Below, piece by piece: positions 1-41,263 of a stretch of DNA of 41,263 bases. The stretch's first letter is position 1; each line of letters begins with the position of its first letter. The stretch is taken from IMG/VR virus record IMGVR_UViG_3300033512_000103, positions 1 to 41,263 of that record; one strand, given 5' to 3'. The notes beneath the pieces were generated by a model. That model did no database searches. It was not told the origin of the DNA and saw only the letters and a list, made by a program, of their open reading frames with translations. The translations under genes and the position numbers were made by a program. Origin of the DNA: a virus.

Positions 1-141
1 GTTTATGGATCGTTCTATTAGCTAATAAATAGTTCGTACTTTTAGCACGACACTTTACAAATCTTAAATTCCATTGGATATCTATAATATCTATTGCAAT
101 TATAACACTAGGTATTATAATTTAATTATCACTATTATTAA
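1..141. repeat. Terminal exact repeat, copy 1 (identical to 41123..41263); circularisation overlap
   Basis: Base-by-base reading shows 1-141 equals 41123-41263. Bases 1-25 duplicate the 3' end and stop codon of CDS 40488..41147. Confidence 0.97.
94..121 (+). promoter_or_regulatory. Sigma70-like promoter TTGCAA-N16-TATAAT (early promoter, copy A)
   Basis: ttgcaa at 94-99 and tataat at 116-121 with a 16-nt spacer. The same architecture and about 80% identical surrounding sequence recur at 35348-35375. Confidence 0.65.
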
Positions 142-17852: not shown

Positions 17853-18779
17853 ATGGCAATAGAAACAGGACAAACAATATCAGCAAGTGACTTTAAGGAC
17901 TCTTCCGCAGGCGCAGGAGACGCAGGTAAAGCTCCTAAATTAAATGGTGACGGAGAACTAGATGAAAGTTTTGGACTAAAAAAAGTTGATATTTTTACTA
18001 CATCAGGAACTTGGACTAAACCTCTTTGGGCTAAATTTGTAGAGGTTATCTTAATTAGTGCTGGTGGCGGTGGTGGAAGTGGACGAAAAGGAACAAGCTC
18101 TGCTGATTCTGGGGGTGCTGGCGGTGGTGGCGGTGGATATTCTCGAACAGTATTTCCAGCTTCTGCAATACCTGATAGCGTTGCTGTTGGTGTCGGTGTT
18201 GGTGGAACTGGCGGTGTTGCTAAATCTTCTGTCGGCAATGGAAATAATGGTGCTGACGGAACTGATAGTACATTCGGAACTCTTATAAAAGCAACTGGTG
18301 GAAAAGGTGGTCAAGGTGGACAAACAGGTGCAGTTGCAACTGCTGGTGCGGGGGGAATTGGTGCTAATGGTGCTTCTGTAAACGGAACTATTGGCGGTGA
18401 GGGTAGAACAAGCGATGGACAAGGTGGAACAGACCACGTTCTTTTTGCTGGTGCAGGTGGTGGGGGTGGTGGCGGTGTTCAATTCGACCCAACAAGAGGT
18501 GGAACTGGCGGTGCTTTAACTGGTGCTGTTGTATTAGCTGGTGGAACTGGTGCTGATAATACCGCAGGCGGTAATGGTAATTCACTTGGGGATAATATTC
18601 CTATGGGTGGTTCAGGTGGCGGTGGTGGTGGTTCTGATGATACAAATAATGGTAAAGCTGGTGGTAATGGTGGTAAATACGGTGGTGGCGGTGGTGGCGG
18701 TGGATATGGAAATGACGCATATAGTAGCGGTGCTGGTGGAAACGGTGCTGACGGTATTGTTATTGTTATAACTAATTAA
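17853..18779 (+). CDS. Glycine-rich domain protein (tail fibre-associated)
   Basis: FTTSGTWTKPLWAKFVEVILISAGGGGGSG is followed by many GGxGG runs. The N-terminal KAPKLNGDGELDESF is fibre-like. Confidence 0.7.
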   Translation: MAIETGQTISASDFKDSSAGAGDAGKAPKLNGDGELDESFGLKKVDIFTTSGTWTKPLWAKFVEVILISAGGGGGSGRKGTSSADSGGAGGGGGGYSRTVFPASAIPDSVAVGVGVGGTGGVAKSSVGNGNNGADGTDSTFGTLIKATGGKGGQGGQTGAVATAGAGGIGANGASVNGTIGGEGRTSDGQGGTDHVLFAGAGGGGGGGVQFDPTRGGTGGALTGAVVLAGGTGADNTAGGNGNSLGDNIPMGGSGGGGGGSDDTNNGKAGGNGGKYGGGGGGGGYGNDAYSSGAGGNGADGIVIVITN

Positions 18780-22055: not shown

Positions 22056-24578
22056 ATGATTCAATACATAGATTTAGTAAATGGTTCGGATACATTACAG
22101 ACACAAAATATAAGTACACCGACAGCAAACGTAACTGCAGTAAACAAAGCCAATCCTTGTAAAATTACCTGTTCCGGTGGACACCCATTTCTTACTGGTG
22201 ATTATGTTCGACTTACTAGTATTGGTGGAATGATGCAAATAAACAATGCACAATTTTCAATTACTTATGTAAGTCCAACAGAATTCACTCTTGATGGTAT
22301 TGATTCAACGGCATACACAACATACACATCAGGCGGTGTTGTAATGCCAGTAATTAAAAAAGCCCCTATTTGTTTAGTTACACTTCCAAATCACGGACTA
22401 GGTAATGGTCAGGAAATAAAAATAACTGGTGTACTTAATATGACACAACTTAACGGTAACGTGTATGTAACCGATAGTGTCACAACAAATACATTTTTAC
22501 TAAAAGATACTGACGGAAATTATATTGATTCATCATTATTTAGTGTTCACGCTGGTGGCGGTGTAATAACTTTATCGAGAAAGATGTCAATAAATGGAAT
22601 TACAAAAGCCAATCCTGCGGTAGTTACTGCTAAAAAGCACGGCTTTGTAAATGGAGATATTGTAATTATTGAGGGTGTAAGTGGTATGACACAGGTAAAT
22701 GATATTGCCTTTTTAGTCGCAAATAAGACAACAGATACATTTGAATTGAGCGGTATAAATAGTAGTGCATATTCTGATTATGTTTCTGGTGGAACAGTTA
22801 CAAAACCATTTCTAACAATGAACTTTTTGGAGACATTAAGAGGTGCTTTGACCTCACCTAGAAATTCATTCTTTACAAATGGAGATACGGTAAGATTTGC
22901 TAGGACTTTTTCTTATGGCGCAAGTATAACTGTTGGTAGCGGTAATATTGGATTCACTAGAAATTCAAAGACAATAACAACAAGTGCCGATTTAAGAGCT
23001 TCACTAGCCGTCGGTGATTATGTTGGTAAAACATCGGCAACTCTTAATGGTTGGGATTTGGTTGGTCAGCCAGACAGACCAGAAATCTTTTATAAAATAT
23101 CCGCAATTACCGCCACAACAATAACCATTGATACAAAATATGGCGGACTTACTGGAACGGTAAATAGTGTTTATCGTTTAAGAATTGGAACAGAAATTAG
23201 AGCCACTGGTGTAGCTTCCGCAAATGCTATATCAACATACGGCTCTAATATTATTTATGAGGGCGGTTGGTCGTTTAATGCGGTTGGCACTTTGGCAAGA
23301 GATAGCTCGACAGCTTTTAAATGTGTATCTGCTGGTGATTTTCAAGGTTGGAACTTCTCTGATTTATCATCAATTTGGAGATATCTTTCATCACTTGATT
23401 CTGGTAGAGGATTTACCTCAACGTCTGGTGTTGATTGTCTATTTGAATACTGCTCCTCGAAGACAACTTTATATTACGGCTTTTTCCTTTCTGGTGGTGT
23501 TACACAAACTCTAAACAGAGCAAGTAATTGTTGGGCGATATCCGCAAACTCTGGTGCTTCTGGTCATATGTATTATCTACAAAGTCCGTCAAATAGACTT
23601 GATAACTGTTACGGTATTGCTGATAGTGCGTCAAACGGTTGTGTCCAATGTTTAAACAAACCAACATTAAATAGTTGTTTATTTGAATGTTCGGCAGTGG
23701 GTGCAAACGGTGGTGTAGGTGCTAAACTTTATAATATAAAATTTAATTTATGTACATCACCGTTGATAAATGTTAGCAACGCAACATTTATGTATAATAT
23801 AGAAATTGACGGTGCTACAACTGGAATAATAACTAGTGCTTTAACCACTTCCGTTTTTATTCGTGGCGGTTCAATTAAAAATTGTACAATTGGAATTTCG
23901 AATTATCGTTGTTTCGGTGGAGAAATAAACGGTGTATCTTTTTCTGGTAATGCTGTTGATATCCAATTTGATGAATACTCTGGTGATATTGATGTTGTTG
24001 ATTGTTCAACTAATGCCCCACTAAACTGGTTCATTTCGAGAACACTTTATACACCACCAATTAAAGTATTGAGATGTTCTATTGACGCCCCTAGTGTTGC
24101 AAAAGCAATTCAGACCGTTGCTGGTGATAATTATATGAAGCCTCAATACTATGTACAAAATAGTTTCGGTATTCCGTCTGGTAAATATTTTGCTTATGGT
24201 GCTTATGTAGAGGACACAACAGACTATCGAACTAGCGGTTACTCAATGAAATTAATGTGGAACTCAACACTTGCTGGATTAACTTATCCAAATAGGATAG
24301 CTTCTACTTATGTAACTGGCGGTGTGGCTAAAACATTTCACTATTATATTAAACGTGATTCAGGCGCTTGGTCTGGTACAATTACCCCAATACTCGCATT
24401 AAATGGTAAGATAATTAAAACTGGTTCTGATATTACTGCACTAAATAACGATTGGAATACTGAATACACTTTATCGGCAAGTGCAGGTGAAGTTACAGAG
24501 GACGGTGATTTAACACTTGGATTTATCTATAACGCAAACAATATTCCTATTTGGATAGATGATGTAACTATTACATAG
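22056..24578 (+). CDS. Tailspike / receptor-binding protein: three tandem beta-barrel repeats of about 75 aa plus a parallel beta-helix (depolymerase-like)
   Basis: The repeats are ANPCKITCSGGHPFLTGDYVRL..., APICLVTLPNHGLGNGQEIKI... and ANPAVVTAKKHGFVNGDIVII.... The C-terminal half has periodic N/C/G-rich turns (NCWAIS, NCYGIA, NSCLFE, NLCTSP, KNCTIG) typical of beta-helix coils. Confidence 0.7.
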   Translation: MIQYIDLVNGSDTLQTQNISTPTANVTAVNKANPCKITCSGGHPFLTGDYVRLTSIGGMMQINNAQFSITYVSPTEFTLDGIDSTAYTTYTSGGVVMPVIKKAPICLVTLPNHGLGNGQEIKITGVLNMTQLNGNVYVTDSVTTNTFLLKDTDGNYIDSSLFSVHAGGGVITLSRKMSINGITKANPAVVTAKKHGFVNGDIVIIEGVSGMTQVNDIAFLVANKTTDTFELSGINSSAYSDYVSGGTVTKPFLTMNFLETLRGALTSPRNSFFTNGDTVRFARTFSYGASITVGSGNIGFTRNSKTITTSADLRASLAVGDYVGKTSATLNGWDLVGQPDRPEIFYKISAITATTITIDTKYGGLTGTVNSVYRLRIGTEIRATGVASANAISTYGSNIIYEGGWSFNAVGTLARDSSTAFKCVSAGDFQGWNFSDLSSIWRYLSSLDSGRGFTSTSGVDCLFEYCSSKTTLYYGFFLSGGVTQTLNRASNCWAISANSGASGHMYYLQSPSNRLDNCYGIADSASNGCVQCLNKPTLNSCLFECSAVGANGGVGAKLYNIKFNLCTSPLINVSNATFMYNIEIDGATTGIITSALTTSVFIRGGSIKNCTIGISNYRCFGGEINGVSFSGNAVDIQFDEYSGDIDVVDCSTNAPLNWFISRTLYTPPIKVLRCSIDAPSVAKAIQTVAGDNYMKPQYYVQNSFGIPSGKYFAYGAYVEDTTDYRTSGYSMKLMWNSTLAGLTYPNRIASTYVTGGVAKTFHYYIKRDSGAWSGTITPILALNGKIIKTGSDITALNNDWNTEYTLSASAGEVTEDGDLTLGFIYNANNIPIWIDDVTIT

Positions 24579-24579
24579 A

Positions 24580-24732
24580 ATGTTATTACCAATTTACAAA
24601 GGAAAACCATTAATTTTAAACAACGACGCAGGTAGTGGAAAGATACCTTTAATGTGCGGAGAGGTTGCGCCTATTTTGGGTAGCTATATTCCAACACAGG
24701 AAAAGTCAGAATGGGTGGCTAATATAAATTAA
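24580..24732 (+). CDS. Small hypothetical protein (50 aa, below the track cutoff)
   Basis: ATG at 24580, directly after the tailspike stop; TAA at 24730-32. Confidence 0.4.
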   Translation: MLLPIYKGKPLILNNDAGSGKIPLMCGEVAPILGSYIPTQEKSEWVANIN

Positions 24733-24736
24733 AATT

Positions 24737-24964
24737 ATGATAACCAGAACAATTGGAACAAAAAAATATACAATAGATAGATTAAATTACCATATACTCG
24801 GTAATGACGAACACCTTGCTATTATTTTTAAGGTAGAAGACGAGGACAGAACTTACTATTACCAAATGGATTTTAATGAAGATGAGTTAAAATTAGTAAT
24901 GGATATTTTAGAAAATAACTTTGCAGATTATATTGTTCAGCGTATAGAAAGCGAACACGTTTAA
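24737..24964 (+). CDS. Hypothetical protein
   Basis: 75-aa ORF with no motif. Confidence 0.55.
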   Translation: MITRTIGTKKYTIDRLNYHILGNDEHLAIIFKVEDEDRTYYYQMDFNEDELKLVMDILENNFADYIVQRIESEHV

Positions 24965-24973
24965 TGTTATAAT
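24965..24973 (+). promoter_or_regulatory. Extended -10 promoter TGTTATAAT, 7 nt upstream of the ATG at 24981 (leaderless)
   Basis: tgttataat at 24965-24973, then attgtat, then atg. Confidence 0.6.
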
Positions 24974-24980
24974 ATTGTAT

Positions 24981-25301
24981 ATGCCAGAATTTACAAAAAT
25001 AGAAAGAGAAGATCCGGTAATAATCCCTGCTACAGAGGAAAAGGTCTATGATAAGTATTGGATATCTGAGATTTTGATAACATCTAAAGCCGGTGGTAGC
25101 ACATTTATTAGTGCGACATTAATTCCTTATAATGGATCTGAAACCATAAATGATCCGGTCAGGAAAATTGTTATAGATGATGTCTTTGGCGCAATCCAAG
25201 ATCCTTCTCGTCCAGAAGCCTTGAGAATGTTACTTGCTCAAACAATGGAGTCCTTCTTTTTGGTCGTTAAGGGTGAAATTAGCTATCAGGATTCAAAATA
25301 A
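24981..25301 (+). CDS. Hypothetical protein (106 aa from the ATG at 24981; the track start at 24975 is TTG)
   Basis: The ATG sits at the leaderless distance from the -10 element. Confidence 0.55.
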   Translation: MPEFTKIEREDPVIIPATEEKVYDKYWISEILITSKAGGSTFISATLIPYNGSETINDPVRKIVIDDVFGAIQDPSRPEALRMLLAQTMESFFLVVKGEISYQDSK

Positions 25302-25337
25302 TTCACGCAATAACACCTCTTTTTTTATTGTCAAAAA

Positions 25338-25346
25338 TGTTATAAT
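25338..25346 (+). promoter_or_regulatory. Extended -10 promoter TGTTATAAT, 6 nt upstream of the ATG at 25353 (leaderless)
   Basis: tgttataat at 25338-25346, then ataggt, then atg. Confidence 0.6.
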
Positions 25347-25352
25347 ATAGGT

Positions 25353-25787
25353 ATGTTAGAAAGTGTGCCTATAGAATTTATTGGTATTTCTGATAATGCG
25401 ATAACCTTTAGAGACGTATCAGTCATCTTTGACGGACTAAAATTTACTACAAAGAAAGGCTATATTACAGACGGCGCTTCTATTCCTAAGTGGTTTTGGT
25501 CTTTGGGGCTACACCCATTTCAGGGCGATACTCTTACTCCAGCTATATTCCACGATATATTTTATCAAACAAGACGATACTCGCGATTTACTTGCGATTG
25601 GAATTTTCTATATTTAATGAAAAAGAACAATGTCAGCTTCCTTAAAAGGTGGTCGTATTTTTTGGCTGTAAGATTATTTGGCTGGATTGCTTACGGATTT
25701 CACAAGGCAGGAATTGAAGAACGAGCAAAACAATTTCTCAAGGTCGAATTAATAAAGCCTTTAGACGGCAGTTTTAAACCTGCGTAA
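25353..25787 (+). CDS. DUF1353-family protein
   Basis: GYITDGASIPKWFW...AIFHDIFY matches the TDGASIP...HD.LY signature of DUF1353. Confidence 0.7.
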   Translation: MLESVPIEFIGISDNAITFRDVSVIFDGLKFTTKKGYITDGASIPKWFWSLGLHPFQGDTLTPAIFHDIFYQTRRYSRFTCDWNFLYLMKKNNVSFLKRWSYFLAVRLFGWIAYGFHKAGIEERAKQFLKVELIKPLDGSFKPA

Positions 25788-25827
25788 AATTATATAAGTA
25801 CATTCTAAAAACAAAAAGGAGAATACT

Positions 25828-26625
25828 ATGAGAACGAATGAGATAATCCTGACAGAACGAGAAAAGAGAATTGTTCGTCAGAGCTTGGTCGCTATTCCAC
25901 CGCGCAAGCCGGTCCATATCAAGGTCGGTCGAAGGTTCAAATTCGGGTATTTTGCTGACGCTCATATGGGCGAAAAGCATTTTCACGAAGAACTTTGGCG
26001 CGAGATGATCAGGGTATTTCGTCGAGAAGGTGTTAAGCACGTCTACAGTGCCGGAGACAATCTCGAAGGAATGTCTGGTCGTGAAGGACACATCTACGAG
26101 TTGGCGCATATCGGAGCGTCGGCTCAACTGGCATATGCCGAGCAAATGTTCGGACTAGCCAAAGACATCAAATTCCATATCATTGACGGAAACCACGACG
26201 CTTGGTTCAAGGACAAGAACAATGCCGGCTTAGTTGCCGGTGCGGAACTTGCCAGACGTTGTAAAAACGTCCAGTTTCTTGGTGAATGGGAAGCCGACGT
26301 AAAACTCGGTGACAACTGCACAATGAAACTGTTTCACGGAAACGACGGAACAAGTTATGCGGATTCCTACAAAATCCAAAAACTTATTGAGTCGTTTGAA
26401 GGCGGAAAGAAACCGAACATTATTCTGTCTGGTCATTACCACAAACAAGTGGCGATTTTCAGACGAAACGTGTTCGGATTCGAATGTGGAACTCTCTGTG
26501 GTCAAACCCGTTTTATGCGTGGCAAGAAATTGCAGGCACATCTTGGGTTCGGGATCATTGAAGTATGGACGAGTGGTGACGGGGTCGAAAGACTGCGCCA
26601 CGAATTCTTCCCATATTTCGATTGA
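25828..26625 (+). CDS. Calcineurin-like metallophosphoesterase
   Basis: The ordered MPE motifs are present: DAHMG (DxH), GDNLEG (GDxxD/E), GNHD (GNHD/E), a later H (FHGND) and GHYH (GH.H). A strong SD (aaggag) lies 6 nt upstream. Confidence 0.85.
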   Translation: MRTNEIILTEREKRIVRQSLVAIPPRKPVHIKVGRRFKFGYFADAHMGEKHFHEELWREMIRVFRREGVKHVYSAGDNLEGMSGREGHIYELAHIGASAQLAYAEQMFGLAKDIKFHIIDGNHDAWFKDKNNAGLVAGAELARRCKNVQFLGEWEADVKLGDNCTMKLFHGNDGTSYADSYKIQKLIESFEGGKKPNIILSGHYHKQVAIFRRNVFGFECGTLCGQTRFMRGKKLQAHLGFGIIEVWTSGDGVERLRHEFFPYFD

Positions 26626-26629
26626 TTAC

Positions 26630-26659
26630 AAGGGGGTATAAAAACCCCCTTTTGTTTTC
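26630..26659 (+). terminator. Rho-independent terminator
   Basis: aaggggg-tataaaa-accccctt stem-loop, followed by tttgtttt. Confidence 0.8.
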
Positions 26660-26679
26660 TAAAAGCGAAAGGAGATATT

Positions 26680-26913
26680 ATGAGATCGGACTTGCCGAAT
26701 ATTGCGAGTCGGAGATTTAAAATCCCCCTCGCAGTTTTATTTAAGACGGCCTACGATTATTGCGAGGTTCGCAAACACCCCAGCAATAAGCGCCAAGAGT
26801 TCGACGAGTTTCTGCATACTAAGGAATGTCCTGATTGTGTGTTTGATTTCTCGCTGGATCTTTTGGCTGGTATAACGACATTCAAATACGAAGAAGAGGA
26901 GATTGGGTTATGA
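26680..26913 (+). CDS. Hypothetical protein (77 aa) in the GC-rich cassette
   Basis: SD aaggag lies 5 nt upstream. A 4-nt ATGA overlap joins it to the next ORF. Confidence 0.6.
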   Translation: MRSDLPNIASRRFKIPLAVLFKTAYDYCEVRKHPSNKRQEFDEFLHTKECPDCVFDFSLDLLAGITTFKYEEEEIGL

Positions 26914-27119
26914 AAAAGAAGATGATAGACGTCGAAATTGATTTGGTTCGTAGTGAAGAATTCAGAGCTTTCGCAAGGAAGCAAACTGTTCTTTCTATGG
27001 ACGATCTCGATTACGTGCTTTATTATCTCAAGTTGAAAGATATTGAGGTGAAGAAGCGCGGTGATAACTTCGTTATGTGGGAGTTCATCAACGATCTTCG
27101 GCGAATGATGAGGGAGTGA
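26910..27119 (+). CDS. Hypothetical protein (69 aa) in the GC-rich cassette
   Basis: SD gaggag lies upstream. The ORF is translationally coupled to the previous one. Confidence 0.6.
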   Translation: MKKKMIDVEIDLVRSEEFRAFARKQTVLSMDDLDYVLYYLKLKDIEVKKRGDNFVMWEFINDLRRMMRE

Positions 27120-27126
27120 GGTGTTT

Positions 27127-27387
27127 ATGAGTGCTAGAAGGAAAATAAGAAAGAGGATAAACGGAAAAACCTTCAGACTATCAACACATCACCGACGCCC
27201 TAAAAGTAAGGGTGGCTCAAGTGACCCAGATAGCGGAAATCTCATACGGATTGCAGTTAATCTCCACGAGGCTTGGCACACGCTTGTCGGAAATGAAGAC
27301 CCGCCAAGAATTGCTGAAATTCTAGATAGATTTAACCGAATTTATCTAGATCCAAACTGGAAGTTAATTGCAGTTAAGAGAACGTGA
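27127..27387 (+). CDS. Small HNH endonuclease (86 aa from the ATG at 27127; the track start at 27121 is GTG)
   Basis: THHRRPKSKGGSSDPDSGNLIRIAVNLHEAWHTL fits the HH..P.S.GG...N...H...H pattern of the HNH core. SD gtgagg lies 5 nt upstream. Confidence 0.75.
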   Translation: MSARRKIRKRINGKTFRLSTHHRRPKSKGGSSDPDSGNLIRIAVNLHEAWHTLVGNEDPPRIAEILDRFNRIYLDPNWKLIAVKRT

Positions 27388-27433
27388 GTGGGTTAAGGTG
27401 TTCACCCCTCTCAAAAAACCTGAGTGAGTCTTG

Positions 27434-27486
27434 CTGTATTCCTCGCTAAAGAATACAGACCACTTCTTTTGAGGTGGTTTTTCTTT
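27434..27486 (+). terminator. Tandem hairpins; the second is a Rho-independent terminator
   Basis: ctgtattc-N9-gaatacag (8 bp) at 27434-27458. accacttc-tttt-gaggtggt (8 bp) at 27459-27478, followed by ttttcttt. Confidence 0.75.
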
Positions 27487-27527
27487 ACAGTGTATAAAAG
27501 GTGTTGTGGTTTTCATAACAAGTAAAG

Positions 27528-27533
27528 TATAAT
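27528..27533 (+). promoter_or_regulatory. -10 element TATAAT, 6 nt upstream of the ATG at 27540 (leaderless)
   Basis: gtataattaatgtatg is identical to the 16-mer upstream of the gene at 38015. Confidence 0.55.
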
Positions 27534-27539
27534 TAATGT

Positions 27540-28580
27540 ATGTCAAATAAAAAAGCTAAAATATTTTCAGGAATTATTGATGACCCACGATCAAAAAAAG
27601 AAAAATCGAAGGATTATCAGGCTGAAGAAGTTGTAACTTTCTCGCCCGTTGAATGGAAAGAAAAAGATAAGAAAAATTATAGGAGATTCAAAATAAGAAA
27701 ACAAAACGGATCAGGAATGTGTGTTGCCTTTGCTACAGCGCTAGCTCTTGGAGTTGAAAATTTATTAGAAGAAAATAAAATGCTTAATATTTCTGCTTTG
27801 GATATTTATGATCGTAGAGCCAATAAACCAGAAGCCGGAATGTGGTTCAACGACGCACTCGAAATTGCTAAAACATTCGGAGCTTGTACTGGAGAATTAT
27901 TGCCTTATGAAAATCTAACCGAGAAGAAAGCTAATCTGCCAGTAAAGAGAACTAACGAAATGCTAAATGTCGCACAAACTTATCGTGGCGGTAAGTATGT
28001 CGCTCTTCCAATTAATATAGAAAGAATCGCGTCGGTAATAAAAGAAGGAAAAATTGTTATTTTAGGTTTTAGTTTTAATTATGATGAATGGACTGATGTT
28101 CCAGTAATTCTATCGAACGAACCAAGTCTCAGACACGGTGTTGGTGCAACTGATTTTACTTTATTCGAAGGAAAGAAATGTTTAGTGATTCAAGATAGCT
28201 GGGGAGAAAGTTACGGTTTAGACGGACTCAGAGTTATTACAGAGAGTTTCCTAAAGGCAAGATGTTTTTATGCTGGTTATATTTTGGCGAGAAAGAATGA
28301 AGGTACTGTTACGGAAAAACCTAGACACACTTTTACAAAAATTCTAACTTACGGAATGAAGAACGACGAAGATGTCAGAGCGCTCCAAGAGATATTAAAT
28401 TACGAAGGTCTGTTTGATTTTGATGAATTTACCGGAAATTATATGCAAATAACTGCAAAAGGAATTGACGCTTTGCAAAAAAAATATTCTATCGCCAGTG
28501 CGCTTGAATTATCTATTGTTCAAGGAAAACGGGTCGGCCAGAAAACTATCAACTGGCTTAATGCTAACTATGGTTCATAG
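27540..28580 (+). CDS. Endolysin: papain-like (C1-type) cysteine peptidase with a C-terminal PG_binding_1 domain
   Basis: QNGSGMCVAFAT has Q six residues before the catalytic C, as in papain. LRHGVGA supplies the His and IQDSWGESYG matches NSWG..WG. The C-terminal DEDVRALQEILNYEGL...TGNYMQITAKGIDALQKKY is peptidoglycan-binding-like. Confidence 0.75.
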   Translation: MSNKKAKIFSGIIDDPRSKKEKSKDYQAEEVVTFSPVEWKEKDKKNYRRFKIRKQNGSGMCVAFATALALGVENLLEENKMLNISALDIYDRRANKPEAGMWFNDALEIAKTFGACTGELLPYENLTEKKANLPVKRTNEMLNVAQTYRGGKYVALPINIERIASVIKEGKIVILGFSFNYDEWTDVPVILSNEPSLRHGVGATDFTLFEGKKCLVIQDSWGESYGLDGLRVITESFLKARCFYAGYILARKNEGTVTEKPRHTFTKILTYGMKNDEDVRALQEILNYEGLFDFDEFTGNYMQITAKGIDALQKKYSIASALELSIVQGKRVGQKTINWLNANYGS

Positions 28581-28711
28581 CTAGCGACACTCGTTATCAC
28601 GTGACACCTCGGGCGCAAAACAATATCCACGTTAAAAATATATATATACAATATCGGATTCACGTTTTAAACCCACATTCAGAACCACGGATAATTTGTG
28701 AATACAACAGA

Positions 28712-38451: not shown

Positions 38452-39363
38452 ATGAACGTAGATGTCTTTGCACGAGAGAAACATCACCAAGTACACGCCC
38501 AAGCCATAGCCAAAGGTTTGGGTGTTGCTGTAAAGGACAGGTCTGACCAAATAACGGCAGACTATGTATGTGTTTTTTCTTTTGGAGATTTACGCGTTGT
38601 TGCTGAAATAGGAAAAGGTATAATCTTTTGTGAACACGGTGTAGGAATGTTTTACAATGTTGTCCACCCTAGTTACGCCGGAAGTCTTAGAAATCGAGAA
38701 AACGTAGTATTGAGATTATCGCCAAACGAAACACACGCAGAGAAAGAAAGAGAAACTTTAGAATGTCCGGTCGAGGTTATTGGAGTTCCAAAATTAGATA
38801 GATTTGCCAATAGGTATTGGAATTTCAACAGGACCAAACCGACTGTAGCCATATCGTTTCACTTTGACTGTCTTGTTTGTCCTGAAACTAGAAGCTCGTT
38901 TTCATATTTTAAGGACGTGATACCTGAATTAAAAAAACACTTTAATCTCATTGGTCATTCACACCCGAGATATGCCAGTGTCTTAGAGCCATTCTATAGA
39001 AAAAATAAAATAAGATTTGTTAAAGATTTCGAGGAAGTCTTGGAACACGCCGACGTTTATTGTATAGACAACAGTTCAACGATATTTGAATGGTGTATAA
39101 CTCAGAAACCAATAGTTCTGCTCAATCCACCGTTCTATAGAAAAGAAGTCGAACATAAAGGTAATCCAAGATTTTGGAAACATTCCGGTATCGCCCCACT
39201 TTGTGAAAGGCCGGAAGATTTAATAGACTCTATCTGGGAAGCCATAAATAATCACGAAAAATATGTTCCGAAGATCAGAGAAGCAAATAAAGACGTTCTA
39301 ACATTTACAGACGGAAGATGTGCAGAACGAGCAGTTAACGCAATAATAAGTAGAATACAATGA
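38452..39363 (+). CDS. GT-B-like glycosyl- or glycerophosphotransferase (TagB/F-like C-terminal motif)
   Basis: ADVYCIDNSSTIFEWCITQKPIVLLNPPFYRKE resembles the D.SS..fD....kPii...D...Y motif of the Glyphos_transf family. Confidence 0.45.
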   Translation: MNVDVFAREKHHQVHAQAIAKGLGVAVKDRSDQITADYVCVFSFGDLRVVAEIGKGIIFCEHGVGMFYNVVHPSYAGSLRNRENVVLRLSPNETHAEKERETLECPVEVIGVPKLDRFANRYWNFNRTKPTVAISFHFDCLVCPETRSSFSYFKDVIPELKKHFNLIGHSHPRYASVLEPFYRKNKIRFVKDFEEVLEHADVYCIDNSSTIFEWCITQKPIVLLNPPFYRKEVEHKGNPRFWKHSGIAPLCERPEDLIDSIWEAINNHEKYVPKIREANKDVLTFTDGRCAERAVNAIISRIQ

Positions 39364-39920
39364 AAATATCAATCAGCATAATGTGTCACCCAAGTAGAGC
39401 GCACCTACTCCCATATCTCTGGGAGAAACTTGGTAATGTCCCTGTCGCTATGGACGAGAAAAATAATATTTGGGACACCTGTAAAAGAGCTTGGAAATTA
39501 CACGATCCGACAGCCGATTACCATTTCGTAATTCAGGACGACGCAATTATTGGACACGATTTTTATGAGAGACTTCAAAAAGTCGTTAGCAATGGAGAGT
39601 ATGTTTATAACTTATATCTTGGAAGACCAAGACTTGTTCATAAGGTTCTAAAGTGCAAAGAAGAAGGTATCGACCATTTAATTGAACCACACACTTACCA
39701 CGAAATCGCACTCGGCTTCCCTGTTAAATATATCAATGAAATGATAGAATATGGGGACAAGATTAATTCGGTACACGATAGATTTTTAAATGAATTTAAA
39801 AGAGAAAAGGGATTGAAGGTATATTTTCCACTACCTAGTTTGATAGACCATAGAGCCGAACCTAGTCTTCATAACTATAACCGTGGCCATTATAAACCGG
39901 TTGCAACTTGGTTCGAATAA
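39360..39920 (+). CDS. Putative GT-A-type glycosyltransferase
   Basis: The N-terminal MKISISIMCHPSR and a DxD-like FVIQDDAII are present. The gene is coupled (ATGA) to the upstream gene. This is weak evidence. Confidence 0.4.
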   Translation: MKISISIMCHPSRAHLLPYLWEKLGNVPVAMDEKNNIWDTCKRAWKLHDPTADYHFVIQDDAIIGHDFYERLQKVVSNGEYVYNLYLGRPRLVHKVLKCKEEGIDHLIEPHTYHEIALGFPVKYINEMIEYGDKINSVHDRFLNEFKREKGLKVYFPLPSLIDHRAEPSLHNYNRGHYKPVATWFE

Positions 39921-39924
39921 AACT

Positions 39925-40491
39925 ATGAAAGATACATATTTTCAAGGAGTTAGAATGTTACCAACATCAAGAAAAAGACTTGAGGCATTAGATAATCTAT
40001 TAAAAAGTACAGGCAGAAAAGATTTGAATATTCTCGAAGTTGGTTCTCTACACGGAGAGTCAGCCAAAGTTTTAGGTAAATACGGAAAAGTTACTTGTGT
40101 AGATTTGTGGGAATTTGGTACAGAAGAATTTAAAAAGAATACCGCAGGACTAGATATTGAGATGATACAAGGTAGTAGCTTGGATATTTTAGCAGAACTT
40201 CCACCAGAAAGTTTTGATTTGATTTATATTGACGGAAATCACACGTACGATTACGTTGTCGAGGATATACGTAATTCAAAAACTCTTATCAGAAGTGGTG
40301 GTTATATTTGTGGAGATGATTTAGAAAAACAGATTTGGCCTATAGCTTTCTTCTCGAATGATTATGACAAAGCTATAAGACATAAAGATGTAGATTACTT
40401 TGAAGGAATCCATTGGGGCGTAAGTTTGGCCGTTGTCGAAGAGCTTGGTGAAGTTGAATGTATTAATGGCTTTTGGTTTAAAAAGATATGA
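39925..40491 (+). CDS. Class I SAM-dependent methyltransferase (Methyltransf_24-like); the ATG at 39925 is preferred over the track start at 39883
   Basis: LNILEVGSLHGESAKVL is a motif I-like sequence. FDLIYIDGNHTYDYVVEDI and GGYICGDD are typical of this family. Confidence 0.7.
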   Translation: MKDTYFQGVRMLPTSRKRLEALDNLLKSTGRKDLNILEVGSLHGESAKVLGKYGKVTCVDLWEFGTEEFKKNTAGLDIEMIQGSSLDILAELPPESFDLIYIDGNHTYDYVVEDIRNSKTLIRSGGYICGDDLEKQIWPIAFFSNDYDKAIRHKDVDYFEGIHWGVSLAVVEELGEVECINGFWFKKI

Positions 40492-41147
40492 TTTCAATAA
40501 TCTGCGCGACAAAAAATAGACCGGAGAATGTAAAGAGATTAATTCAATCGGCTAAAGATACCGCACAAGATTTTGAATTTGTTTTTATTATAGATGAGGG
40601 AGATACTATTGAAGCTCAGGGTTACACTGTAGTAATAAATAAACAGGGATTTGTTTCACTAGGAACTTTATTCAATATGGGAGTACCATATGCAAAAGGT
40701 GATGTTTTTATGCTTTGCGGTGATGACGTTGTTTTTAGAAGTAAAGATTGGGATAAAATTGTTCAGGATAAGATTAACTCATTTAAAGATAAGATTTGTT
40801 TAGTCTATGGTGATGATTTATTACAGGGCGAAAGAATGGCAACGCACCCTTTTGTTCATAAGAATTGGGTTGAAGCACTTGGGTATTTGAATCCGCCACA
40901 GTTTTATTCAGATTTCGGAGATGTATATCTTATGGACTTGGCCAGAGGCGTAAATAGGTTGGTTTATCTTCCAGAAGTTGTTGCCGAACACTTACACCCA
41001 TTTGGAAATAAAGCGCCAACTGATGACACATACGAGAGGAGAGTTAAATATAAAAAAAGAGCGCGAAGGATTTACAACAACTCATTGGATCAAAAAAAAG
41101 AGGACATAGATAAGATAATCTCGTTTATGGATCGTTCTATTAGCTAA
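40488..41147 (+). CDS. Family 2 (GT-A) glycosyltransferase
   Basis: MISIICATKNRPENVKRLIQS is a GT2 N-terminus. FIIDEGD and LCGDDVVF are DxD-type motifs. The CDS terminates inside the terminal repeat. Confidence 0.7.
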   Translation: MISIICATKNRPENVKRLIQSAKDTAQDFEFVFIIDEGDTIEAQGYTVVINKQGFVSLGTLFNMGVPYAKGDVFMLCGDDVVFRSKDWDKIVQDKINSFKDKICLVYGDDLLQGERMATHPFVHKNWVEALGYLNPPQFYSDFGDVYLMDLARGVNRLVYLPEVVAEHLHPFGNKAPTDDTYERRVKYKKRARRIYNNSLDQKKEDIDKIISFMDRSIS

Positions 41148-41263
41148 TAAATAGTTCGTACTTTTAGCACGACACTTTACAAATCTTAAATTCCATTGGA
41201 TATCTATAATATCTATTGCAATTATAACACTAGGTATTATAATTTAATTATCACTATTATTAA
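41123..41263. repeat. Terminal exact repeat, copy 2 (identical to 1..141)
   Basis: Established by direct reading; see copy 1. Confidence 0.97.

Follow-up and report, generated by a model that had tools for sequence, protein, structure and literature searches.

A two-unit gene cassette with a stand-alone metallophosphoesterase gene and a minimal HNH gene at a variable site of a phage genome

Introduction

What is a G+C-rich block of four genes doing in an A+T-rich phage genome, and do its genes belong together? This question is raised by positions 25800-27490 of the virus record IMGVR_UViG_3300033512_000103 in IMG/VR, whose 41,263 nucleotides were analysed over their full length and are called the window here. 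The block lies between a tail-accessory DUF1353 gene (25353-25787) and a lysin gene (27540-28580). It encodes, in this order, a metallophosphoesterase of 265 amino acids (aa), two small open reading frames (ORFs) of 77 and 69 aa, and an 86-aa protein with an HNH motif. An earlier note on this DNA had described the block as a recently acquired foreign cassette and had proposed counter-defence, exclusion or homing as its role.

The block is interpreted here, with a probability of about 0.5, as a mosaic accessory island that circulates horizontally and is made of two units, one with a DP1/Mre11-like enzyme gene and one, selfish, with a minimal HNH gene (mini-HNH). Among the three proposed roles, possible homing-type behaviour of the HNH unit has the best indirect support.

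Composition and Translation Signals

The G+C content of the block is 0.442, whereas 1691-nt windows of the contig have a mean of 0.364 (standard deviation 0.025). A value of 0.442 is reached by 4 of 3958 such windows, and all four overlap the cassette. The block was correctly recognised as richer in G+C than its surroundings; it is the highest-G+C 1.7-kb stretch of the genome. Three of the four hand counts per 60 nucleotides in the earlier note (31, 34 and 18) are correct, and the last is 22 and not 21. At the left edge the G+C content climbs from 0.35-0.38 to 0.50 at about 25900, and right of the block it falls to 0.26 (27501-27600) in native A+T-rich DNA.

A sliding-window and codon analysis had been proposed as a check, and it finds the shift at third and fourfold-degenerate codon positions. 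Pooled G+C at third positions (GC3) is 0.475 in the cassette vs 0.282 elsewhere, and fourfold-site G+C is 0.44 vs 0.21. Codons ending in C and codons ending in G are both more frequent in the cassette, with C/(C+T) at 0.47 vs 0.28 and G/(A+G) at 0.44 vs 0.24. Among genes of at least 200 codons, codon usage is most deviant in the metallophosphoesterase gene. The codons raised in the cassette include CTG, CTC, CCG, ACG and GTG, which the capsid gene uses never or almost never (GTG 0.02); fourfold-site G+C in the capsid gene is 0.06. The cassette shift is a general compositional shift at silent sites. Codon optimisation was rejected as the cause of the high GC3, because the cassette favours the very G/C-ending codons that the capsid gene avoids.

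The genome has one other G+C peak, at 18001-18500, inside the gene of a 308-aa tail-module protein (17853-18779). This protein is 32% glycine and matches Pfam Gly_rich_2; G+C is 0.63 at both first and second codon positions and 0.16 at third positions. A foreign origin of this peak was ruled out, as the G+C content there is driven by amino-acid content. A collagen-like gene was also dismissed as its source, because the glycine-rich protein is not built of Gly-X-Y repeats.

The translation signals of the cassette are as distinct as its composition. The motifs GGAG or GAGG are found at -20 to -4 in 4/4 cassette genes and in 2/53 other genes (Fisher p = 3.8e-5), which bears out the earlier description of four ORFs with Shine-Dalgarno (SD) motifs in a genome mostly free of them. 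The four strongest predicted anti-SD pairings in the contig are those of the four cassette genes (-8.7 to -12.1 kcal/mol), and the other genes average -1.2. Near-identical leaders open both units (25803-25821 and 26657-26674), with the form TTCTAAAA(A/G)C(A/G)AAA(A)GGAG. The segment TTCTAAAAACAAAA of the unit 1 leader (25803-25816) is found again before unit 2 as direct repeat D12. These twin leaders suggest a shared or duplicated translation-initiation region. Within unit 2, the SD motifs of the inner genes are GAGGAG at 26896-26901 (69-aa ORF) and GAGG at 27118-27121 (86-aa ORF).

SD-bearing genes are not expected in this phage, because Bacteroidota ribosomes sequester the anti-SD and disregard SD sequences (PMC7797042, PMC9976891). 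The assignment to this host group comes from the rest of the genome. The major capsid protein is 45% identical to capsids of freshwater Flavobacterium siphoviruses, the large terminase is 33-34% identical to terminases of Bacteroides and Parabacteroides phages, and leaders are A-rich and without SD motifs genome-wide. Together these features indicate a siphovirus of Bacteroidota (Flavobacterium-type).

The Metallophosphoesterase of Unit 1

The 265-aa protein is a member of the metallophosphoesterase (calcineurin-like) superfamily. Its scores exceed the Pfam cutoffs for Metallophos_2 (32.1 bits, cutoff 27) and Metallophos (23.7 bits, cutoff 21.5). It has all five metal-binding motifs of the superfamily (DxH, GD, GNH[DE], H and GHxH). 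The residues concerned, D44xH46, G76D77, G121N122H123D124, H170 and (G202)H203xH205, are invariant or nearly so in 34 homologues (G202 in at least 90%). In a profile search of the PDB, the small subunit DP1 of archaeal PolD came top (E = 7e-7) and Mre11 next. A structure predicted by AlphaFold2 (AF2; mean predicted local distance difference test score, pLDDT, 86) gave a similar result. Its best Foldseek match was DP1 (E = 5e-11, query-normalised template modelling score, TM-score, 0.66), followed by Vps29, the MJ0936 phosphodiesterase and Mre11/SbcD. There were 185 PDB fold matches at E <= 1e-3, and the top 50 listed all belong to the metallophosphoesterase superfamily.

The likeness to DP1 and Mre11 does not extend to the level of these families. 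The NCBIfam models of the PolD small subunit scored 11-37 bits vs cutoffs of 425-823 and aligned with the N-terminal motifs only. The protein consists of the catalytic core alone, with no OB-fold, PolD-binding, Rad50-binding or capping domain, and the window encodes no DP2 or Rad50 partner. It is probably a Mn-dependent nuclease or phosphodiesterase of DP1/Mre11-like type. Membership of the lambda NinI/PPP phosphatase family was considered and rejected, because the protein has GNHD and does not have GDxxDRG, the motif of PPP phosphatases.

Homologues of the enzyme number 448 in the protein collection and 188 confirmed stretches in IMG/VR. The 50,697 GenBank phage records of cultured phages contain one match, from a Halorubrum virus (27% identity), and a metagenome scan returned 5 short loci only. 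A scan of the genome collection gave matches in metagenome bins of many phyla, including DPANN archaea and bacteria of the candidate phyla radiation (CPR), and provided no clue to the host; these bins probably hold mis-binned phage contigs. In the distant homologues (35-57% identity), the G+C content mostly matches that of the flanks (median excess +0.02). These genes adjoin terminase subunit genes in about 14 of 70 loci, that is, at the junction of early and late genes.

The Small ORFs and the Mini-HNH of Unit 2

The four ORFs are as they had been described, except that the fourth most likely starts at ATG 27127 (86 aa) and not at GTG 27121. The 77-aa and 69-aa ORFs matched no family in Pfam, NCBIfam or PADLOC, and nothing usable was returned by NCBIfam and PADLOC for any of the three small ORFs. 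The overlap of the first two (ATGA) suggests translational coupling. The sole relative of the 77-aa ORF is weak (24% identity over 62 aa); it lies in locus L001 (the sampled loci carry L numbers), likewise after the metallophosphoesterase gene. For the 69-aa ORF, none of the other loci yielded a relative.

A word-based protein search with the 86-aa ORF found no homologue. An exhaustive HMMER search found 348 representatives at E <= 1e-3. They form a family of uncurated phage proteins of 70-100 aa with the consensus HHRKPRSxGG..N..H.AWH.LF..P..IA..IN..WLDP.Y.LVA. In 40 family members, H22, N38 and H47 are invariant and H21 and H51 are conserved in at least 90%. The HNH label given to this ORF holds at the level of the family. 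Pfam HNH (PF01844) is matched at E <= 1 by 24/40 members (best 5e-5), and the family profile aligns with the HNH motif of colicin E7 in the PDB (E = 1e-3). The window protein taken alone stays below the Pfam gathering threshold (12.9 bits, cutoff 21.4; E = 0.13). Its AF2 model (pLDDT 91) has a beta-beta-alpha core (strands 14-22 and 39-43, helix 44-54), and its first nine Foldseek matches are all HNH nucleases, at E values of 0.5-1.5, none significant alone. As an assignment of fold and motif to an uncurated family, the HNH label is right.

Recurrence, Mobility and Site Variability

Does the block travel, and does it travel as a whole? In the window and in L001/L002, L006/L007 and L089, the enzyme gene is followed, after 260-570 bp and on the same strand, by a mini-HNH gene of one and the same family. 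These are otherwise unrelated phages, and the island stands at differing places in them. In L001, it lies behind the early genes, convergent with an unbroken DUF1353-holin-lysin block; the window has it between the DUF1353 gene and the lysin gene, which it separates. Other HNH families occupy the same slot after the enzyme gene in L097 (HNH_5, with a strong SD), L095 (NinG) and L003 (HNH_3), and an HNH_3 gene likewise neighbours the metallophosphoesterase gene in 5 of about 70 distant loci. In L008, L094, L096 and most of these distant loci, the enzyme gene has no HNH gene nearby.

A direct view of gain or loss is given by L006 and L008, which are 99.8% identical over 4 kb apart from a 490-bp insertion in L006. 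In the region compared (L006 6975-7627 and L008 4932-5012), the insertion carries most of a 94-aa ORF and the mini-HNH gene. On its flanks is an 82-bp direct repeat (91% identity) with a terminator-like hairpin in it, and the 3' end of the upstream unit seems to have been duplicated by the insertion or to have been carried in with it as a further copy. Past the insertion, the two loci have a patch at 96% identity and a gene replacement before they return to 99.9% identity. The notion of a foreign, mobile block gains support from this presence/absence difference and from the recurrence of the same enzyme and mini-HNH in unrelated phages.

In protein searches, neither the lysin nor the DUF1353 protein had close relatives among IMG/VR or GenBank phages, and a DNA search of 24500-28600 against GenBank phages found no match; the site comparison rests on lysin relatives at 45-65% identity. 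In L201/L202 (lysin 45% identical), the tail genes end 8 bp before the lysin gene, which leaves the site empty. L200 (51%) has no cassette. The closest relative, L199 (65%), starts with the C-terminus of a mini-HNH at a G+C content of 0.44 in a background of 0.32. It then has other cargo before the lysin gene (221-1125), namely an HNH_3 endonuclease gene and the gene of a 104-aa HAD-like phosphatase (weak PNKP-type match). These relatives, empty, cassette-less or differently loaded, agree with the insertion site being variable. In L199, too, an HNH and a phosphoesterase stand together at this site, a second such pair.

The neighbours of the mini-HNH in 54 IMG/VR loci are varied. They include DUF932 (10 loci) and the lysin domains PG_binding_1 (7), M23 (4), Amidase_2 (2), C1 (2) and SLT (2), as well as restriction-modification genes, NinG and metallophosphoesterases; a terminase is the nearest large neighbour in 0/54. 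Some of the metallophosphoesterases are unrelated to the window enzyme, namely one of 169 aa (L177/L179) and one of 333 aa (L191). Among L144-L198, a 238-aa DUF932 protein stands directly upstream of the mini-HNH in about 10/54 loci, which belong to closely related phages, and a BglII-like restriction endonuclease adjoins the mini-HNH in 3 loci.

The four genes do not behave as one system, contrary to what had been suggested: only the metallophosphoesterase and the mini-HNH recur, and the two small ORFs have no relative or a weak one. The earlier remark that the cassette matches no named phage accessory system stands as regards PADLOC-DB, a catalogue of defence and not anti-defence genes in which none of the four proteins had a match at E <= 1.

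Age of the Compositional Signature

Can the composition date the insertion? The nearest metallophosphoesterase has 77% identity at the protein level and 68% at the DNA level (69.6% across the 767 nt aligned by BLAST). Across the close clade, defined here as the sampled loci whose metallophosphoesterase is 62-77% identical to the window copy, DNA identity is 58-68%. At conserved residues, identity at fourfold sites is 0.19-0.34 vs 0.25 expected by composition, so that silent sites are saturated against every relative. The signature persists all the same. The G+C content of the enzyme gene exceeds that of its flanks in 10/10 close-clade contexts (+0.03 to +0.12). The backgrounds are SD-poor, with 0-14% of genes reaching -6 kcal/mol, and strong SD-like motifs occur there on the enzyme gene or on the small genes just after it (L001 7363, L003 6001, L095 8413 and 8924, L097 3525 and all three L089 genes).

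Because silent sites are saturated while the signature persists, a recent acquisition cannot be read from composition, and this part of the earlier description falls. The G+C-rich silent sites, the SD leaders and the private terminators are traits of the cassette lineage and do not date this insertion. The copy in each phage may have been acquired from an unsampled reservoir that is rich in G+C and uses SD motifs, or selection inside the cassette may maintain both traits. A special form of the latter would be that the SD leaders and G+C-rich silent sites are selected as a self-contained expression unit favoured by ribosomes without protein bS21. Ribosomes of Bacteroidia disregard the SD unless bS21 is missing (PMC7797042, PMC9976891). 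This idea, prompted by an island whose genes all bear SD motifs in phages whose other genes have none, is improbable. If it were true, a particular ribosome state during infection would govern when a potentially toxic nuclease is expressed, and this would be the first case of a phage using the specialised-ribosome switch, for which the host gene rpsU is so far the only known example.

Proposed Mechanism and Alternatives

Under the proposed interpretation, the island occupies a variable site between a tail-accessory gene and the lysin gene of a Bacteroidota siphovirus. The unit 1 enzyme would most likely act on nucleic acid during infection as a Mn-dependent nuclease or phosphodiesterase. By analogy with the mycobacteriophage proteins Bxb1 gp47 and A10ZJ24 gp48, its role could be the processing or degradation of DNA, possibly that of the host. 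Unit 2 would be a small coupled operon whose sole conserved gene encodes a minimal HNH endonuclease. The mini-HNH gene would be a selfish element of homing type that inserts beside a conserved enzyme gene and is gained and lost alone. Genes for RecT and a YqaJ exonuclease are present in the window, and recombinational repair with these proteins would drag along the DNA beside the mini-HNH gene. Such co-transfer of neighbouring DNA would account for the joint travel of the two genes.

Several observations weigh against this interpretation. The 86-aa HNH protein has no evident DNA-recognition domain, which makes site-specific homing doubtful; to our knowledge, characterised homing HNH enzymes are larger than 86 aa. 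No close relative of the window phage without the cassette was found, so that the junctions in the window are not defined by an empty site, and no direct or inverted repeats flank the cassette ends there. During a long stay in A+T-rich phages, neutral drift should erase the G+C excess and the SD motifs, and a reservoir or selection must be assumed. Finally, the location of the mini-HNH beside two unrelated metallophosphoesterases favours functional coupling over hitch-hiking. Do the two enzymes work together, then? They could form a functional two-nuclease module that is co-inherited through joint work; for example, the HNH protein would nick DNA and the metallophosphoesterase would resect it, so that host DNA is degraded or a defence countered. 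The pair recurs in at least four phage backgrounds, the mini-HNH adjoins unrelated metallophosphoesterases, and unrelated HNH families fill the slot after the enzyme gene. Such non-orthologous replacement of the partner on both sides is a classic sign of functional linkage. This explanation is a possible one but is judged doubtful, given that the enzyme gene so often stands without an HNH gene, that the HNH unit alone sets L006 apart from L008, that a terminator divides the two genes of the window into separate transcription units, and that the small ORFs in between are not conserved.

Other alternatives concern one of the two enzymes or the origin of the whole block. The metallophosphoesterase might be a phosphodiesterase of small molecules and break down a nucleotide that serves as an immune signal (cyclic mono-, di- or oligonucleotides), in which case the block would be a counter-defence cassette. 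Cyclic-nucleotide and generic phosphodiesterases do belong to the superfamily, one of the top fold matches is the MJ0936 phosphodiesterase (1s3l; target-normalised TM-score 0.77), and a position at a module junction with horizontal spread suits anti-defence genes. Such a role is nonetheless unlikely, as the best matches in sequence and structure are the nucleases DP1 and Mre11 and the distant family members mostly lie beside terminase and other DNA-processing genes; the silence of PADLOC, a catalogue of defence and not anti-defence genes, also speaks on this side. It is very unlikely that the mini-HNH is a packaging accessory like HK97 gp74, which would stimulate cutting by the terminase and would not be a mobile gene. 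In its favour, 10/55 family loci lie within 1 kb of a contig end vs about 3 expected, the top fold matches include a small HNH nickase from a prophage (Gme HNH, 4h9d), and distant metallophosphoesterase homologues often adjoin terminase genes. However, strain-variable islands are places where assemblies tend to break, and this would account for the surplus near contig ends. The mini-HNH gene itself never has a terminase as its nearest large neighbour and lies about 24 kb from the large terminase gene in a circle of 41.1 kb. The L006/L008 polymorphism shows that the gene is dispensable, and variants of the L008 type suggest that the terminase works without it. Least credible of all is that the cassette genes are native and that their composition reflects protein make-up or expression level. 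The near absence of a G+C excess in the distant family members would fit this, but it leaves aside a shift at third and fourfold positions, the rise of C- and G-ending codons of which some are never used by the capsid gene, and the lack of the block in lysin relatives.

Features of the Cassette and Its Genomic Setting

The features of the cassette and its junctions are listed in Table 1. The division of the block into two units had been noticed before, and the units are indeed separable. The terminator predicted after the metallophosphoesterase gene was confirmed as a hairpin (26630-26651; -15.9 kcal/mol, z = -2.9) with a T-run. The tandem hairpins described at the end of unit 2 are retained in part. 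The second one (27457-27480) is followed by a T-run, and the first one (27434-27456) is an inverted repeat that is missing from the minimum-energy and centroid folds.

Table 1. Positions of the cassette features and junctions in the window.
Feature	Position	Strand	Properties
Left junction and unit 1 leader	25788..25827	+	SD AAGGAG 25816-25821, 6 nt before ATG; anti-SD pairing -8.7 kcal/mol
Metallophosphoesterase gene, 265 aa	25828..26625	+	G+C 0.472, GC3 0.496; Pfam Metallophos_2
Intrinsic terminator of unit 1	26630..26661	+	AAGGGGGT-loop-ACCCCCTT, then T-run
Unit 2 leader TTCTAAAAGCGAAAGGAG	26657..26679	+	SD AGGAG 26670-26674; direct repeat D12
77-aa ORF	26680..26913	+	GC3 0.50; no family match
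69-aa ORF	26910..27119	+	GC3 0.53; 4-nt overlap (ATGA) with 77-aa ORF
Minimal HNH-motif protein, 86 aa	27127..27387	+	HH21-22, N38, H47, H51; C-terminal helical extension
Two adjoining hairpins ending unit 2	27434..27486	+	second terminator-like, first an exact 8-bp inverted repeat
Right junction	27487..27539	+	native A+T-rich DNA; TATAAT 27528-27533, 7 nt before lysin ATG

No convincing promoter was found ahead of either cassette unit, and the TATAAT motif that recurs in the genome is absent before both. This motif, (T)GATATAAT(TA), is extended -10-like and stands 2-13 nt before the ATG of at least 8 genes, including the DUF1353 and lysin genes (examples at 1575, 5996, 17347, 22038, 24968, 25341, 27528 and 38003). 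A location so near the ATG suggests leaderless or nearly leaderless transcripts. A -10-like motif of this kind is unusual among Bacteroidota promoters.

An exact copy of the first 141 bp is found at the end of the window (1-141 = 41123-41263), so the genome is complete and circular or circularly permuted, with a unique length of 41,122 bp. Every plausible gene of the window is on the + strand. There are no tRNA genes in the window, no Rfam family matched anywhere in it, and a Pfam census of its proteins contains no integrase or resolvase. The ubiquitin-E1 FCCH domain (Pfam E1_FCCH, E = 2e-32), which would not be expected in a phage fibre, occurs three times in the 840-aa tail fibre protein (22056-24578). 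The last stretch of the map (38452-41147) has a run of genes for a CDP-glycerol glycerophosphotransferase-like protein, a methyltransferase and a family-2 glycosyltransferase, which may serve modification of a cell-surface polymer or of the phage DNA.

Significance and Comparison With Known Systems

The analysis defines a large uncharacterised family of stand-alone phage metallophosphoesterases, with more than 440 homologues in metagenomes and hardly any in cultured phages. It can reasonably be put forward as a candidate for a nuclease-based takeover or counter-defence function that is widespread in environmental phages, because replication depends on Bxb1 gp47 and escape from host defences on A10ZJ24 gp48, its nearest characterised analogues. 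The uncurated HNH family of 70-100 aa, with direct evidence of gain or loss, offers a tractable minimal system for the size limit of HNH mobile genes. A third point of interest is the persistence of SD motifs and G+C-richness in phages of supposedly SD-blind hosts, despite saturation at silent sites; a reporter system exists in Flavobacterium johnsoniae. Current views are not overturned by these results, as mobile accessory islands with HNH genes are familiar in phage genomes.

How does the island compare with systems already described? In mycobacteriophage Bxb1, DNA replication depends on gp47, a protein with weak 3' exonuclease activity (PMC11795197). A cluster-A relative, A10ZJ24 gp48, breaks down DNA and is toxic to the host, and with it the phage evades host defences (PMC12287305). 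Like these two, the window enzyme is a single-domain phage metallophosphoesterase of about 255-265 aa with all catalytic motifs and with Mre11 and PolD DP1 as nearest structural relatives. An alignment with Bxb1 gp47 by hhalign, however, reached a probability of 47% over 51 C-terminal columns only, and tblastn with the window enzyme against the 50,697 phage records found no mycobacteriophage. The gene of Bxb1 gp47 belongs to the replication module, and its product is also the directionality factor for a serine integrase, whereas the window genome has no integrase and its enzyme gene, of foreign composition, lies between tail and lysis genes. The likeness is one of functional analogy, with a marginal link in sequence, and does not make the window enzyme a member of the Bxb1 gp47 family. 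With PolD DP1 and Mre11/SbcD it has the metal-binding motifs and the beta-sandwich core in common, and it differs from them in having none of their accessory domains.

The mini-HNH is best compared with the free-standing HNH homing endonuclease genes of T4-like phages, such as T4 mobE (PMC2790892, PMC2988022). Like these, it is a small HNH gene between conserved genes, is present or absent in near-identical genomes (for a family member, in L006/L008), has its own expression signals and has diverse neighbours in accessory regions, and varied HNH families stand beside the same conserved gene. Unlike these, it encodes a protein of 86 aa that has no recognisable DNA-binding module or zinc-binding cysteines and falls below the Pfam HNH threshold. 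From HK97 gp74 it differs in adjoining no terminase gene in the 54 family loci and in its distance from that of the window. The island as a whole resembles phage morons in its place between tail and lysis genes, its deviant composition and its own terminators; it differs from them in that no promoter of its own was identified, TATAAT being absent upstream, and in combining two units, of which one is probably selfish. Elements of this kind are already known: the block is an accessory island of a phage that has both a free-standing HNH gene and the gene of a stand-alone metallophosphoesterase, probably a nuclease.

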